From a virus, in the UHGV virus genome UHGV-0099904: 14,417 nucleotides of DNA; one strand, written 5' to 3'. The notes under the pieces are model-generated. The model was not told the DNA's origin. It saw nothing but the letters and a program-made list of their open reading frames with translations, and ran no database searches. Positions within the stretch are counted from its first letter, which is position 1; every line of letters begins with the position of its first letter. Made by a program: the position numbers and the translations under genes. Below are positions 1 through 13,303 of the stretch, piece by piece.

Positions 1-14
1 AGCCTGGCGGTGGG

Positions 15-3000
15 ATGAACCTGTTAATCACCTCAGTGGATGGTGATAAAACCGCTGGCGCGGCGTCAGTGAATATTGGTGAATTCTACCAGGTAACTAT
101 TCAGCAGCGTAAGGATATTTCTCTTGCACTTAGCGCAGGTAAGAAATATGCAATTGTGCTGAAGGGAAGATACCTCCTTGGAGAAGATTCTTATCAGGTT
201 AATACCGCGTCACATATTCATGCGGCTGAATTTGTTGCCAGAACCTATACCGATTCATATCAGTTAGGAGATGGGGAACTGCTTGTTTGTACGGTGAATA
301 TCCCTGCTGGCGTATCTGCTATTACTAAGGAAATGATAGATGTATCCGACCGCATCGATCTCGCGATAGGCATTGAAATTTCCGACTCTGTAACCAGTAC
401 CAGAAGTGATGTCGCTGCAAGTTCGCTGGCGGTTAAAAAAGCCTACGATCTGGCTAAAAGCAAGTATACGGCGCAGGATGCAAGCACAACACAAAAGGGA
501 TTAGTTCAGCTCAGTAGCGCAACTAACAGCGACAGCGAAACAATGGCGGCTACCCCTAAAGCCGTTAAGTCTGTAAAAGAGCTGGCTGATACCAAAGCGC
601 CAATAGAAAGCCCGAGTCTGACAGGAACGCCAACCGCGCCGACGGCAGCGCAAGGTACAAACAGCACGCAGATCGCAAATACAGCCTTTGTTAAGGCAGC
701 TATAACGGCACTTATCAACGGTGCACCTGGCACACTGGATACGCTTAAAGAAATAGCGGCTGCGATCAATAACGACCCGAATTTCAGCACAACTATCAAC
801 AATGCTCTGGCTCTTAAAGCTCCTTTAGCAAGTCCTGCATTAACGGGAATACCTACTGCGCCTACCGCTGTACAGGGTACGAATAACACGCAGATTGCTA
901 CGACCGCTTATGTAAGAGCTGCTATCTCTGCATTGGTCGGCTCATCACCTGAAGCTCTTGATACCCTGAATGAGCTTGCAGCAGCACTGGGCAATGACCC
1001 GAACTTTGCGACAACAATGACAAATGCGCTGGCAGGCAAACAGCCACTTGATGCAACTTTAACCGCGCTTGCTGGTCTTGCGACAGGCGCAAATAAATTG
1101 CCGTACTTTACCGGTACAGACACTGTTTCTCAGACTGACTTAACGTCAGTCGGTCGCGATATTCTGGCCAAAACAAGCGTTCTTGCTGTTATCCAATACC
1201 TTGGTTTAAGAGAACTCGGTACCAGTGGTGAAAAGATCCCCCTGTTGAGCACGGCTAACACATGGAGTGCGCGCCAGACTTTCAACGGAGGGATCACCGG
1301 GGCGCTGACAGGGAACGCCGACACCGCGACGAAATTGAAAACAGCACGCACGATTGGCGGTGTGGCATTTGATGGCTCGGGCAATATCAATCTTCCAGGT
1401 GTAAATATAACAGGTAACCAGAACACCACGGGGAATGCTGCTACCGCGACAAAACTTGCGACGGTAAGAAACATCAACGGTGTTAAGTTTGATGGTTCTG
1501 CGGACATTTCGATACCAACAATTACGTCCAGAGGGCGTGTTACTGCGCTCACCGGTACAACACAAGGTGCTGCTACTGGATTGCAGATGTATGAGGCGTA
1601 CAACAATAGCTACCCGACCACGTATGGCAACGTATTGCACATGAAAGGTGCGAGTGCTGCTGGTGAGGGCGAGTTGCTTATTGGCTGGAGTAGTACGAGC
1701 GGTGCACATGCGCCGGTTTTCATTCGCTCCCGAAGAGATCACACTGATGCGGCATGGTCAGCGTGGGCGCAGGTATATACATCAAGGGACTCCATTCCTG
1801 GTGTGAATGCCACTGGCAATCAGAATACAACTGGCAATGCAGCAACCGCTACAAAACTACAGACGGCAAGAACTATCGGCGGAGTTAGCTTTGATGGTAC
1901 TGCGAATATTAATTTACCTGGTGTTAACGTTGCGGGTAATCAGAATACATCCGGTAACGCGGCTACAGCGACCAAGTTACAAACCGCGAGAACTATAAAT
2001 GGGGTGTCGTTTGACGGTTCTAAAAACATTGAGCTAACTCCAAGGTCTATAGGCACGATCAACTCTACAACCATGTCTTTTATTGGTGGTGCAGGATGGT
2101 TCAAGCTGGCAACTGTAACCATGCCACAGGCCAGTTCCGTGGTTTACATAAGTCTGATTGGTAGTTCTGGATATAATGTTAACTCCCCTATGCAGGCTGG
2201 TATATCTGAACTTGTTCTTCGTGCGGGAAATGGGAATCCAAAAGGTCTTACTGGTGCGTTATGGCGACGGACATCGGTTGGATTTACTAATTTTGCATGG
2301 GTGAATACATCCGGTGATACCTATGATGTTTATGTTGAAATAGGTAATTACGCCACTGGTGTAAATATCCAGTGGGATTATACCAGTAACGCCAGCGTAA
2401 CGATTCATACATCACCAAATTACACAGTAGATAAACCAACTGGTCTTACTGATGGAACGGTATATGTCATTTACAGTTCGCACATTAAACCGACCGCCAC
2501 GGATGTCGGCGCATTACCAATAACCGGAGGAAATCTCAACGGCGGTTTAACGGCTACTGGTGAGATCGTTTCAAGATATGCAAATGGTTTCCGCATTGCC
2601 TATGGAAGCTACGGATTCTTTATCCGAAACGATGGTTCAAACACATATTTCATGTTGACCAATTCGGGTAACAGCCTGGGAACCTATAATAATTTAAGGC
2701 CGCTTATCATTAACAATGCCAATGGTACTGTTACGATCGGTAATGGGCTCAATGTTACTGGCGGCATCAATGGTAGTTTGAACGGCAATGCTTCAACGGC
2801 TACGAAGTTGCAAACTGCTAGAAAAATAAGCGGCGTGTCTTTTGATGGTTCTGCTGATATAACACTAACAGCTGAAAATGTATCTGCTTTTGCTCTACGC
2901 GCTACTGGAACTTATGCCGATACTAGTGGTGCGGTCCCGTGGAATGCCGAATCAGGTGCGTATAATGTTACACGCTCCGGGGATTCTTATATCGTTGCAA

Positions 3001-4034
3001 ATTTTTATACAGGCGTAGGTAGTTGTCGGACTCTCCAAATCCGAGCGCACCATAAAAATGGTGGATTGTATTACCGTTCATCACGTGATGGCTATGGGTT
3101 CGAAGAGGGCTGGGCTCAGATATATACTAAAAAAGACAGCATCCCTGGTGTGAATACAACTGGTAATCAGAACACTACTGGCAATGCTGCAACTGCAACA
3201 AAACTGCAAACAGCACGCACAATAGGCGGAGTGTCATTCGATGGTAGTGCCAATATCGACCTGCCGGGCGTGAATAAAGCAGGTAATCAGAGCACTACCG
3301 GTAATGCCGCAACCGCAACGAAACTACAGACTGCACGCACTATCAACGGTGTTCAGTTTGATGGTTCTGCAAATATTACTTTAACTGCTGCTAACCTTGG
3401 CCTGAGCGATTCAAGCGGATATGTTGGGCGTTTGGTGAATACCCGGGTTTTCACTTCATCAGGTACGTATACCCCAACCCCAGGAACAAAACGGATCAGG
3501 GTCACAATAACGGGCGGCGGTGGCGGAGGGGGCGGCTGCAAGGCTATATCCAATAATGAAACGTTTTTCGGTGCTGGCGGCGGGGCAGGTGGGACAGTAA
3601 TCACCACGCTGATCCTGACGAAGGATAGTTATCCTGTCACTATCGGCGCAGGTGGGGCCGGCGGCGTTAGTGCGACGACCGGCCTCAAGGGCGGTGATAG
3701 CTCGTTCGGATCGGTAATAGCCCCTGGTGGTGAAGGTGGCGGGAAAGTGGGAGTTACAAACACAAACGGCGGTAACGGCGGTGTGCCAAGTACTGGCGGT
3801 ATCAACATCATTGGTGGACATGGAGGCGACGGTCAGTCCGGAAATATCGGCGTCAGCGGTGAAGGCGGAACATCGTACTGGGGGGGCGGTGGACGCGCAG
3901 GCGCTGGCGGTGGTGTTAGTGGTAAGGCATATGGTTCAGGTGGCGGTGGCGCATACGATGCCGGTTATAGCGGAACCAGTATGACGGGCGGGAAAGGTGC
4001 TGCTGGGATTTGTATTATCGAGGAGTTTGCATAA
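15..4034 (+). CDS. Phage tail fiber protein, 1339 aa; the frame has no upstream stop before the window edge, so the true N-terminus may lie upstream
   Basis: Single 4 kb ORF. Translation shows hallmark tail fiber motifs: KGLVQLSSATNSDSETMAATPKAVK near aa 160-185, PTAPTA..GTN.TQIA.TA(F/Y)V shaft repeats, repeated GNQNTTGNAATATKLQTARTIGGVSFDGSANI units, and a Gly-rich C-terminus. A tail fiber assembly gene follows with a TAATG stop/start overlap. Confidence 0.9.
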   Translation: MNLLITSVDGDKTAGAASVNIGEFYQVTIQQRKDISLALSAGKKYAIVLKGRYLLGEDSYQVNTASHIHAAEFVARTYTDSYQLGDGELLVCTVNIPAGVSAITKEMIDVSDRIDLAIGIEISDSVTSTRSDVAASSLAVKKAYDLAKSKYTAQDASTTQKGLVQLSSATNSDSETMAATPKAVKSVKELADTKAPIESPSLTGTPTAPTAAQGTNSTQIANTAFVKAAITALINGAPGTLDTLKEIAAAINNDPNFSTTINNALALKAPLASPALTGIPTAPTAVQGTNNTQIATTAYVRAAISALVGSSPEALDTLNELAAALGNDPNFATTMTNALAGKQPLDATLTALAGLATGANKLPYFTGTDTVSQTDLTSVGRDILAKTSVLAVIQYLGLRELGTSGEKIPLLSTANTWSARQTFNGGITGALTGNADTATKLKTARTIGGVAFDGSGNINLPGVNITGNQNTTGNAATATKLATVRNINGVKFDGSADISIPTITSRGRVTALTGTTQGAATGLQMYEAYNNSYPTTYGNVLHMKGASAAGEGELLIGWSSTSGAHAPVFIRSRRDHTDAAWSAWAQVYTSRDSIPGVNATGNQNTTGNAATATKLQTARTIGGVSFDGTANINLPGVNVAGNQNTSGNAATATKLQTARTINGVSFDGSKNIELTPRSIGTINSTTMSFIGGAGWFKLATVTMPQASSVVYISLIGSSGYNVNSPMQAGISELVLRAGNGNPKGLTGALWRRTSVGFTNFAWVNTSGDTYDVYVEIGNYATGVNIQWDYTSNASVTIHTSPNYTVDKPTGLTDGTVYVIYSSHIKPTATDVGALPITGGNLNGGLTATGEIVSRYANGFRIAYGSYGFFIRNDGSNTYFMLTNSGNSLGTYNNLRPLIINNANGTVTIGNGLNVTGGINGSLNGNASTATKLQTARKISGVSFDGSADITLTAENVSAFALRATGTYADTSGAVPWNAESGAYNVTRSGDSYIVANFYTGVGSCRTLQIRAHHKNGGLYYRSSRDGYGFEEGWAQIYTKKDSIPGVNTTGNQNTTGNAATATKLQTARTIGGVSFDGSANIDLPGVNKAGNQSTTGNAATATKLQTARTINGVQFDGSANITLTAANLGLSDSSGYVGRLVNTRVFTSSGTYTPTPGTKRIRVTITGGGGGGGGCKAISNNETFFGAGGGAGGTVITTLILTKDSYPVTIGAGGAGGVSATTGLKGGDSSFGSVIAPGGEGGGKVGVTNTNGGNGGVPSTGGINIIGGHGGDGQSGNIGVSGEGGTSYWGGGGRAGAGGGVSGKAYGSGGGGAYDAGYSGTSMTGGKGAAGICIIEEFA
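597..1040 (+). repeat. Tandem duplication of a ~74-aa shaft module inside the tail fiber gene (aa 195-268 and 269-342)
   Basis: APIESPSLTGTPTAPTAAQGTNSTQIANTAFVKAAITALINGAPGTLDTLKEIAAAINNDPNFSTTINNALALK versus APLASPALTGIPTAPTAVQGTNNTQIATTAYVRAAISALVGSSPEALDTLNELAAALGNDPNFATTMTNALAGK. The protein copies are clearly related while the DNA differs at many codon third positions. Confidence 0.8.
1299..1514 (+). repeat. First pair of ~40-aa TATKL fiber repeats (aa 429-500)
   Basis: TGNADTATKLKTARTIGGVAFDGSGNINLPGVN followed by ITGNQNTTGNAATATKLATVRNINGVKFDGSADISIP. Confidence 0.8.
1791..2036 (+). repeat. Second pair of TATKL fiber repeats (aa 593-674)
   Basis: IPGVNATGNQNTTGNAATATKLQTARTIGGVSFDGTANINLPGVNVAGNQNTSGNAATATKLQTARTINGVSFDGSKNIEL. 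Confidence 0.8.
3141..3383 (+). repeat. Third pair of TATKL fiber repeats (aa 1043-1123); a single copy also lies at about 2769-2867
   Basis: IPGVNTTGNQNTTGNAATATKLQTARTIGGVSFDGSANIDLPGVNKAGNQSTTGNAATATKLQTARTINGVQFDGSANITL. Near-identical in protein to the 1791-2036 copy, with many synonymous DNA differences. Confidence 0.8.
3492..4031 (+). repeat. Glycine-rich C-terminal tip domain of the tail fiber (aa ~1160-1339); GGN-rich low-complexity DNA
   Basis: Runs GGGGGGGG, GAGGGAGG, GAGGAGG, PGGEGGG, GGNGG, GGHGGDG, GEGG, GGGGRAGAGGG and GSGGGG alternate with short non-Gly segments. Includes a G7 homopolymer at 3880-3886. Confidence 0.75.
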
Positions 4035-4444
4035 TGAATGCGTCATATGCAGTTATTGAAAATGGGATGGTTGTGAATGTCATTGTCTGGGATGGCGAGG
4101 CTGAATTCACAGTGCCGGATAATCAGCAGCTCATTAATATTTCTGATATCAGTGAGCAGCCCGGAATCGGCTGGGTGTATTCAGACGGGGGATTTACTGC
4201 ACCACCCACTCCGGAACGTTCTCATGATGAACTGGTAGCTGACGCTGAACAGAAAAAACAGTCGCTGATTGATACCGCAATGGCTTCCATTAGTCTTATT
4301 CAACTGAAATTACAGGCCGGGCGGAATCTTACGCAGGCTGAAACCACCCGTCTTAACGCTGTGCTGGATTATATCGATGCGGTGACCGCAATGGATACCA
4401 GCACTGCACCAGATGTCAATTGGCCAGCGTTCCCGGAGGCGTAG
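4034..4444 (+). CDS. tfa: Tail fiber assembly protein (lambda Tfa / P1 U-like chaperone)
   Basis: C-terminal DTSTAPDVNWPAFPEA closely matches the lambda Tfa C-terminus as I recall it (DTSTAPDIEWPAVP). AGGAG at 4021-4025 sits 8 nt before the ATG at 4034, which overlaps the fiber TAA. The ORF-track start at 4010 is a TTG and is less likely. Confidence 0.9.
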   Translation: MNASYAVIENGMVVNVIVWDGEAEFTVPDNQQLINISDISEQPGIGWVYSDGGFTAPPTPERSHDELVADAEQKKQSLIDTAMASISLIQLKLQAGRNLTQAETTRLNAVLDYIDAVTAMDTSTAPDVNWPAFPEA

Positions 4445-4588
4445 TCCATTTAATAAAATATCTGGATCGCTGGAAGCATCGACTGGTTCCAGTGCGTCCG
4501 GATAATCGAGCTACAAGTTATCAGATGATTACCGTTCATGCCTCAAGAGTGAGCGCATGCTGCACCCACGCAAATTTAACTTTCATAC

Positions 4589-4642
4589 GACCAGAGTTTA
4601 CCTATCAAAAGCCTTTTTCACTCTGGTCGTTCAGCCTTTTTT
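4589..4642 (+). terminator. Candidate terminator or operator: 9-bp perfect inverted repeat GACCAGAGT/ACTCTGGTC with a 22-nt spacer, followed by a T6 run
   Basis: Arms at 4589-4597 and 4620-4628; TTTTTT at 4637-4642. It lies about 145 nt after the tfa stop. The loop is long for a classical intrinsic terminator. Confidence 0.3.
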
Positions 4643-4724
4643 CCACTCGCCTTGTCCTCAAAAATTAGCTCACATCCTGCGCTTTCAAGAGCGTTTCGTT
4701 GTAAAGCAGTGTTTTGTTCATTTG

Positions 4725-4752
4725 TTGATACGCGTACATAGCCTATTAGCAT
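4725..4752 (+). promoter_or_regulatory. Weak sigma70-like promoter candidate (TTGATA, 16-nt spacer, TAGCAT) in the AT-rich spacer upstream of the lyd/dar block
   Basis: Hexamers read directly from sequence in a 435-bp noncoding AT-rich region that precedes a long co-directional operon. A phage late-activator-dependent promoter is equally possible and I cannot place it by eye. Confidence 0.2.
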
Positions 4753-12208: not shown

Positions 12209-13303
12209 TCACGAGAAGCTTTTTTCTGATGTCAGCCAACAGTGCTCGTGCAAATCTCTTGGTGGTTTTTCGACAAATGCCTCTTCAGCCACATCCTGCC
12301 AGGGGATTTGTTTAGCCCATTCAGCTATAGCGTTATGGTTTGCCGAGAATAACGGTATTGTATAGGCCTTCAGCCAGTCTAATGTGCTGGAGTTGTGTTT
12401 TTGAGCGTGATGTTTCGCATGGTGTTTGGCGATCACGATCGTAGGCACTACCCATTTACTACCGTCAGTCATTGTGAAGTGCATATTACGGGGAACAGAT
12501 GACTTTTCCATCAACTCCCGAATCCCGGGAAATTTCCCCAAGATCAATCGGCGATATTCATCGCTATTGCGCCCACCAAACTCTTTGGCTTTGAATTCAA
12601 GATATGCTTCAGAAACGAGAGGTGAATCCTCTGTGTTTAGAGTTAGCGCCGTGAAAAAACCAGCAGGATTGTTTTTACTATGGGCCAACCGGTGATGCGA
12701 ATCATAAAAGTACCCTTTCTCGCGTTCCGATGGTTTCGACAGCAACAGCAGGCGCGAGTCATAATTGGTTAAATTGCCAGTTATCACTGCATGAGCGCGA
12801 TCGCTGATTTCCGCCGAGTTAATAACGATGAAAAGATCGTGCGGTCCAGTAAAACCAGCCAGAGACTCTTCGTTATTCAGACAATAGGTTATATAGACGC
12901 ATCCCCATGTTTCACTGATATGCACCAACCCTTTGTCAGGGTGTATTCTGAAATAATTGCCAAGAAAAGGGTGTTTTTGGGTAACTCGCTCCCAATAACG
13001 GAACATATAGTCAATTATTGTTTTTCGACTATCGTTAATCGCAGGAGAAACAACCACTGTACGGGAACACGAATACAGTATTGTTTGCAGGATGCTAATC
13101 ACTGCCACAATAGAGGTTTCCCCAATACCATGTGGTGTGGTGGCAGTGACTTTGGCTCCGGTGTTCTTTATCGCGTTAATAATTTTTGCTTGATGAGGTG
13201 TTAACTCAATATCAAGCAACTCTTTTGCTGCCAGTTCCCAATTGTCTTTATACCGTTCTATCAGTGCTAACCAGGCAGATTCATTCTGTATACGATTAAT
13301 CAC
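12209..13303 (-). CDS. Terminase-large-subunit-like ATPase-fold protein with degenerate Walker A and B motifs, 364 aa
   Basis: LTPHQAKIINAIKNTGAKVTATTPHGIGETSIVAVISIL...RTVVVSPAINDSRKTI...DLFIVINSAEIS parallels the T4 gp17-type N-terminal ATPase (YQ..., RQLGKTTVVA..., IYIDECAF) as I recall it, but with GETS in place of GKT and NSAE in place of DE. Overlaps the upstream gene by 8 nt. Confidence 0.55.
   Translation of the reverse strand: MINRIQNESAWLALIERYKDNWELAAKELLDIELTPHQAKIINAIKNTGAKVTATTPHGIGETSIVAVISILQTILYSCSRTVVVSPAINDSRKTIIDYMFRYWERVTQKHPFLGNYFRIHPDKGLVHISETWGCVYITYCLNNEESLAGFTGPHDLFIVINSAEISDRAHAVITGNLTNYDSRLLLLSKPSEREKGYFYDSHHRLAHSKNNPAGFFTALTLNTEDSPLVSEAYLEFKAKEFGGRNSDEYRRLILGKFPGIRELMEKSSVPRNMHFTMTDGSKWVVPTIVIAKHHAKHHAQKHNSSTLDWLKAYTIPLFSANHNAIAEWAKQIPWQDVAEEAFVEKPPRDLHEHCWLTSEKSFS

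Follow-up and report, generated by a model that had tools for sequence, protein, structure and literature searches.

P1-like phage-plasmids spread resistance genes, P1 itself is widely used for transduction and DNA delivery, and its entry into strains is decided by the tip of the tail fibre. We analysed such a tip in the virus genome UHGV-0099904, in a stretch of 14,417 nucleotides that is called the window throughout. The element in question is the C-terminal TNF-like/glycine-rich domain of a P1 gpS-type tail fibre (positions 3393-4031, plus strand; TNF, tumour necrosis factor), a presumed receptor-binding tip that was delimited by Pfam, profile and fold searches and is followed by a gene for the chaperone Tfa.

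The domain has solved and functional relatives. In gp24, the tail fibre of cyanophage Pam3, each chain carries a TNF-like sandwich whose strands run into six loops with twelve glycine-rich motifs, the motifs form a four-layer lattice with main-chain hydrogen bonds, and the distal end of the fibre consists of this glycine-rich domain alone (PMC9608196). The distal ends of gp24 are less conserved and receptor binding has been proposed for them, and a Mu-Tfa-like chaperone, which is not present in virions, binds the domain in a 3:3 complex (PMC9608196). The Pam3 domain shows a local similarity to S16 gp38 (2.7 Å over 52 Cα atoms) and a larger one to ALK (125 Cα atoms) (PMC9608196), and the domains of Pam3 and Bxb1 have independently been classed as polyproline II (PPII) helical bundles, like that of gp38 (PMC13243192). 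Another gp24 homologue, TFP_Y of Klebsiella phage SCNJ1-Y, blocks DNA ejection triggered by lipopolysaccharide (LPS), and an evolved phage that had regained infectivity on an LPS mutant carried T169I and S209G together in the glycine-rich domain (PMC12671077). P1-like plasmids with a truncated cin gene and a lost C segment, or with a lost switch, have also been described (PMC6906374). The domain family with its structure, chaperone dependence and host-range role is already published, as are a degraded Cin switch and host-range mutations of a homologue, and our results leave current understanding unchanged; their use lies mainly in fibre engineering and in the correction of annotations. A text search of the literature on the domain name (PF21722 or Gly_rich_2) returned plant papers only, and a P1 host-range paper does not mention the fibre type found in the window.

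Family and fold of the fibre tip

The last 180 residues of the fibre open reading frame (ORF) contain 65 glycines (36.1%), against 10.9% in the other 1159 residues (binomial P 2.6e-13). The most glycine-rich run of 180 residues holds 66 glycines, while 2000 shuffles averaged 35.5 and never exceeded 45. Thirteen glycine-rich motifs, for example GGGGGGGG (residues 1167-1174), GAGGGAGG (1186-1193) and GAGGAGG (1211-1217), alternate here with short non-glycine segments, as a preliminary description of the window had observed for the last ~180 residues. That description had delimited the stretch as 3492-4034 (plus strand), which comprises the glycine-rich part of the C-terminal domain and the stop codon. 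Its glycine richness stands, but its start does not: the domain runs from about nucleotide 3393 (aa 1127-1148), the homology shared with other fibres sets in at NLGL (aa 1127), and the first beta-strands (YVGRLVNTRVFTSSGTYTPTPGTKRIRVTIT), which lie ahead of the first glycine run, had been cut off. A collagen-like reading was tried and rejected on the basis that there was only one G-X-Y run, of three units.

Comparison with Pfam identified Gly_rich_2 (PF21722) at aa 1148-1336. The score was 51.0 bits (E 2.5e-13) with the whole protein as query and 56.8 bits (E 4e-15) with only the domain, well over the gathering cut-off of 24.3 bits, and of the 226 profile positions the match takes in 2-224. 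Among 1.84 billion representative proteins, which were searched exhaustively, homologues occurred in 7435 representative clusters at E<=1e-3 and in 1188 at E<=1e-10, with the glycine positions conserved. The window domain itself reaches to the stop codon of the fibre gene. In 253 of the 261 homologues with full coverage, the match ends no more than 5 residues from the C-terminus, which agrees with the distal position proposed for the glycine-rich region in the preliminary description. The PHROG matches of the tip were tail fibre families without exception, and in most of them the domain stands at the end of the profile. NCBIfam contained no model for the domain, for Tfa or for the whole fibre. 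There are a few exceptions to the C-terminal rule, among them P0156 (1078 aa) and P0184 (1028 aa), where the domain is internal or the match falls into several stretches.

An AlphaFold2 monomer model built from an 87-sequence alignment had a mean predicted local distance difference test (pLDDT) score of 94.7 and a predicted template modelling (pTM) score of 0.89, with no segment below a pLDDT of 50. It comprises about 11 short strands, and the glycine runs, which are neither helix nor strand, reach pLDDT values of 97-99. A TNF-like beta-sandwich with strands that continue into a lattice of glycine-rich motifs was present in the model, and where about 12 motifs with a GGGGxGG-type core are expected for the Pam3 type, 13 were counted, including the first two named above. 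An alternative explanation takes the stretch for a linker or tail that is glycine-rich, of low complexity and disordered, without a defined fold. Low complexity does mask the tip, so fully that a filtered tblastn search of the phage collection returned no match at all and thereby missed the 70% identical fibre of Goslar. Set against this are the high pLDDT along the whole model, the conservation of the glycine positions in thousands of homologues and the solved, ordered structure of the Pam3 homologue. The predicted order and the Pam3 structure refute a disordered linker, to which we attach next to no credence.

A fold search with the model (Foldseek) returned Pam3 (7ypx_A) as the best match, with an E value of 1.8e-9 and a template modelling (TM) score of 0.70, followed by Bxb1 and then by ALK and LTK. 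In a profile search of the Protein Data Bank (PDB) with 87 sequences (hmmsearch), 7ypx_A (E 2.1e-21) and 7yfw_a (E 4.7e-21) were matched over nearly the whole domain. Because the profile finds the Pam3 fibre sequence at E 2e-21, the relation to Pam3 is one of homology and not of shape alone. Predicted viral structures gave 279 matches at E<=1e-3, which include the Goslar fibre (70% identity, TM 0.96) as well as cyanophages, mycobacteriophages and collagen-like proteins of giant viruses. The fold search also matched the tip model to the glycine-rich domains of ALK and to Obg, which are known polyglycine II (PGII) proteins. The fibre tip is a member of the Gly_rich_2/Pam3 gp24 family, a known and structurally solved kind of domain, and not of the gp38 family.

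Within this family the window tip and Pam3 gp24 (PDB 7YPX and 7YFW; chaperone gp25) share ~29-31% identity. The two fibres are built differently, however: gp24 is a minimal fibre of 280 aa with an alpha-helical anchor only, whereas the fibre of the window has ~1400 aa, seven repeat modules and several inserts and belongs to a P1-type phage-plasmid of E. coli. The TNF-like/glycine-rich ligand-binding domains of the receptor kinases ALK and LTK (7LIR, 7NX3) match marginally, with about half of the tip superposing at Foldseek E values of 4e-3 or worse; they are parts of metazoan receptor ectodomains, and their ligand is a protein cytokine. The family profile also matches residues 2-197 of the RemZ chain (PDB 8gl8_D; E 1.6e-4), a non-phage bacterial protein in a solved complex, and judging from this match Gly_rich_2 domains may occur outside phage fibres too.

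The preliminary description had likened the tip to the gp38-type adhesins of T2 and S16. In the corresponding explanation it would be a gp38-family adhesin fused to the fibre, with a three-layer PGII sandwich and hypervariable segments that bind an outer-membrane porin. There are real likenesses: gp38 (T2, S16, PP01; PDB 6F45) also places a lattice of glycine-rich motifs at the tip of a long fibre, variable non-glycine loops have been proposed as its receptor contacts, and in structural class it falls, like the Pam3-type domain, among the rare polyglycine/PPII bundles (PMC9608196, PMC13243192). As a control, S16 gp38 taken from its genome record scored 246.3 bits with Pfam GP38 and 70.5 bits with Gp38_N; neither GP38 (PF05268) nor Gp38_N (PF21721) matched the window tip at E<=0.1. 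The family alignment of the window tip reached a probability of 1.6% against gp38 in hhalign, BLASTP gave an E value of 6, the PDB profile search with the tip family found no gp38 chain at E<=10, and the gp38 structure 6F45 was not among the fold matches listed. Moreover, gp38 is a small protein of its own, encoded after gene 37, which sits as a monomer on the end of the gp37 trimer. It is composed of an N-terminal attachment domain, a beta-helix and a lattice with 10 motifs in three layers, an architecture that the window model does not fit. The window tip, by contrast, combines a TNF-like sandwich with ~12-13 motifs, forms the end of every fibre chain and requires a Tfa. We therefore regard a fused gp38 as very improbable, and this reading was abandoned. 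What the window tip shares with gp38 is only the rare principle of a glycine lattice, and the earlier interpretation holds in part.

Proposed receptor binding by the tip

The tip region is very likely the receptor-binding tip of the fibre, and on the evidence as a whole there is a good probability that 3393-4031 acts as the receptor-binding domain at the far end of a long P1 gpS-type fibre, as a Gly_rich_2 domain that works in the manner of Pam3. In the mechanism that we propose, a small TNF-like beta-sandwich would lie at the end of each chain of a presumably trimeric fibre, and by homology to Pam3 some six glycine-rich hairpin loops (12-13 motifs) would project distally from the strands of the sandwich. 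The glycine loops would pack side by side as PGII/PPII-type helices held by backbone hydrogen bonds, and the host receptor would be touched by the non-glycine residues exposed at the loop turns. The tip-specific N-terminal domain of Tfa would grip the sandwich and the loop region, while its conserved C-terminal helical domain would bring the three chains together during folding. By analogy with the Klebsiella homologues, LPS or some other surface carbohydrate is the likeliest receptor, and LPS would be the first one to try.

In the preliminary description, the non-glycine segments as a whole had been taken as receptor contacts. Assignment of secondary structure in the model (DSSP) revealed that about half of them are core beta-strands and not receptor loops, namely RIRVTIT, TVITTLIL, YPVTI, SFGSVIA, INII and GICIIEEF. 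The claim is thus narrowed: only the turns between paired glycine motifs, as suggested by the topology of Pam3, are kept as candidate contacts. The candidate turns are CKAISNNETFF (1175-1185), VSATTGLK (1218-1225), KVGVTNTN (1244-1251), QSGNIGVS (1274-1281), VSGKAY (1301-1306) and YDAGYSGTSMT (1314-1324). TFP_Y, the fibre of a Klebsiella Jedunavirus, was retrieved from the genome record of its phage. Over 218 residues it shares 35% identity with the tip of the window, and its T169 aligns to T1221 of the window, in the non-glycine segment VSATTGLK. TFP_Y differs in being a short fibre of 297 aa from another host and phage group, and the experimental link to LPS comes from TFP_Y.

Several results weigh against a Pam3-like receptor-binding tip. 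A single-sequence phmmer search of the PDB matched Pam3 only weakly (E ~7), and the homology rests on the profile and the fold. Where close homologues (>=80% identity) differ, the differences do not concentrate in the predicted loop turns, and a large share of them falls in the strand TVITTLILTK (aa 1194-1203). The alignment of TFP_Y S209 to the window tip is ambiguous. Further globular inserts in the fibre (aa ~500-590, 690-900 and 960-1040) could bind receptors too, and the authors of the Pam3 study call the angles of the glycine motifs close to those of a beta-sheet (PMC9608196).

Some of these points would also fit a different role, in which the glycine-rich domain is a structural cap or folding nucleus that serves trimer assembly with Tfa, and in which specificity resides in globular domains of the shaft upstream. 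Besides this pattern of variation in close homologues, this explanation could draw on the other non-repeat globular regions of the fibre, which include a Gp34_trimer-like domain (aa 822-899), and on the conservation of the tip at 84-98% across fibres with very different shafts. However, fibres of ~309 residues consist of little beyond an N-terminal anchor and the tip domain, and because little else is present, the tip domain must be the binding part in them. In Pam3 the tip is likewise the sole distal domain (PMC9608196), and in SCNJ1-Y the two substitutions of the host-range mutant fall within the homologous domain of the protein that blocks LPS-triggered ejection (PMC12671077). A mere cap is accordingly unlikely, and we prefer a receptor-binding tip. 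That it is also a determinant of host range, as stated in the preliminary description, is plausible, and it would be one of an ordinary kind; the SCNJ1-Y homologue mutant (PMC12671077) speaks for this claim.

The tip-Tfa cassette

The glycine-rich domain lies in the same ORF as the rest of the fibre, and the Tfa gene (positions 4034-4444, plus strand; 136 aa) stands directly downstream, with a match to Pfam Caudo_TAP (PF02413) at E 1.7e-22 and to PHROG 188. The preliminary description had read the neighbouring chaperone correctly. The start codon of tfa at 4034 overlaps the stop codon of the fibre gene (TAATG). The N-terminal ~60 aa of Tfa are inherited with the tip, whereas the C-terminal ~75 aa are of a widely shared Tfa type, and the last 186 nucleotides of the gene alone match many tfa genes of P2, HK97, SfIV and Klebsiella phages. 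Such a pattern fits a Tfa in which a tip-specific N-domain has been joined to a generic C-domain. In a phmmer search of the PDB, Tfa returned neither Mu Tfa nor Pam3 gp25.

To follow the pair across genomes, we collected 59 loci with a complete or 5'-cut tip, comprising 53 from IMG/VR, 4 E. coli prophages, the near-identical plasmid described below and Goslar; the search for related loci used a single-protein query and reached close relatives only. A Tfa N-domain of at least 64% identity stands right behind the tip in 58 of the 59 loci (87-100% in 57 and 64% in Goslar), and the exception, L056, has a Tfa N-domain of 47% identity. The fibre ORFs that carry the tip and its linked Tfa range from ~309 to more than 1500 codons, and the identity of the tip is 84-98% across Mu-type short fibres (~309 residues) and many other shafts. 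In Goslar, the tip-Tfa pair was recovered by blastn in distant mode at 68% nucleotide identity, with a tip of 70% protein identity. Its fibre gp090 and Tfa gp089 form the same cassette, but Goslar is a jumbo phage whose 1324-aa fibre has another shaft. The region of tip and tfa has a megablast match in 477 of 5426 complete E. coli genomes (~9%).

The best protein matches to the tip were E. coli proteins of 308 aa, which are 97-98% identical over the tip and whose Tfa is 87% identical. Their genes come after Mu-type baseplate genes (Gp45, Gp46, Baseplate_J, Gp48) and before a Tfa gene; therefore, these proteins are complete short fibres of the Pam3 gp24 type. These prophage fibres share the tip-Tfa cassette with the window and differ in shaft and tail, with a short fibre on a Mu-type baseplate. 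NCBI sources name 308-aa homologues 'carbohydrate kinase', and the discussion in PMC12671077 raises LPS hydrolysis by TFP_Y as a question. Both points could be cited for the idea that the tip is an enzyme acting on surface carbohydrate. The name, however, is probably an annotation artefact, and we consider an enzymatic tip highly improbable. Hundreds of E. coli entries of 308 aa (e.g. P0013, with ~100 similar ones) bear this name and are short tail fibres with Gly_rich_2 as their only domain. Two misreadings are corrected in this way, that of the tip as a fused gp38 and that of many E. coli tail fibres as 'carbohydrate kinase'. An acyltransferase-3 gene and an integrase gene lie adjacent to the 308-aa fibre genes in their loci (L005-L008, 6001-6927).

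These data illustrate that the tip and Tfa are linked as a mobile cassette. A further proposal is that the tip and the Tfa N-domain are a self-contained, horizontally mobile host-range cassette that has been grafted with little change (84-98% identity) onto the short fibres of Mu-type tails and the long fibres of the P1 type and, at 70% identity, onto the fibre of a jumbo phage, and that in this phage-plasmid lineage took the place of the two-way Cin switch, leaving one fixed specificity; for this proposal as a whole we judge the chances to be about even. A Pam3 gp24-type tip with its matched Tfa gives the module boundaries for fibre swaps (nucleotides 3393-4444). If the cassette proposal is true, this unit could be moved to retarget P1-based transduction or delivery particles, and the loop turns would make a compact surface for receptor binding that could be designed on its glycine scaffold.

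The P1-like fibre gene and its degraded Cin switch

The window is a piece of a P1-like phage-plasmid. In a megablast search with the whole window, P1, P7 and many Punavirus records matched at 96-98% identity, and the nearest E. coli records were plasmids of 82-95 kb. The closest of these plasmids has annotations for a tail fibre and its assembly protein, for holins and an incomplete recombinase, and for the darA operon. Positions 1-1345 are 94.6% identical in nucleotides to P1 gene S. Homology to P1 breaks at 1345 and resumes at 4548 inside cin, and from there to 12175, through lyd, dar and ddr, the identity is 97.9%; the lyd and dar genes beside the fibre are ~98% identical to those of P1.

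The P1 gpS-type tail fibre gene occupies positions 1-4034 (plus strand), with its 5' end cut by the window. The ORF as listed runs from the ATG at 15 to 4034 and encodes 1339 aa, and the real start is placed ~160 nucleotides upstream. The codons for PGGGMNLL in the window correspond to P1 gpS residues 55-62, and because those ahead of the ATG at 15 (PGGG) match residues 55-58, the fibre ORF is ~58 aa longer at its N-terminus and is cut by the window edge. The Pfam matches of the fibre are Phage_fiber_2, Gp34_trimer and Gly_rich_2. Its shaft region (1310-3390, plus strand), as defined by a repeat search and by Phage_fiber_2 and Gp34_trimer (aa 822-899), contains 7 copies of a 92-nucleotide module (GNAATATKLxTARxIxGVxFDGSxxI) with globular inserts between them.

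Within the fibre gene, positions 1192-1211 (plus strand) are identical to cixR of P1 (TCCAATACCTTGGTTTAAGA), the crossover site of the Cin inversion system, at which the constant part (Sc) gives way to the variable part (Sv). No second cix site was found in the window at <=4 mismatches. Of the cin invertase gene, only a remnant with codons 1-49 is present (4606-4752, minus strand), which tblastn with P1 Cin detected at 92% identity over aa 1-49; the near-identical plasmid has the same remnant, annotated as an incomplete recombinase. Compared with P1 gpS and its Cin-invertible C segment, the window keeps the P1-like N-terminal constant part and the identical cixR, but the variable part has been swapped for a longer one with another tip and Tfa, and Sv', U', cixL and most of cin are absent. 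In place of the invertible C segment there is thus a single, fixed variable part with one tfa, and with these elements gone the fibre cannot switch and is fixed in one state.

Some minor observations concern the shaft and the far end of the window. The repeats of the fibre also include larger duplications of 201-276 nucleotides. In the plasmid p01G17CRGN001_A, which is otherwise 99% identical, the fibre has 1514 aa (L001, 8191-12735) and is longer than that of the window, with the extra repeat material located between window positions 1285/1323 and 2849/3144; therefore, the length of the shaft varies by gain and loss of repeats. An ORF of 364 aa at 12209-13303 (minus strand) is present at this place neither in P1 nor in the nearest plasmid, and its position is that of the variable isaA-IS1-isaB spot of P1. 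It had no match in Pfam or PADLOC and matched PHROG 5902, a family of unknown function, and, weakly, a terminase large subunit family.

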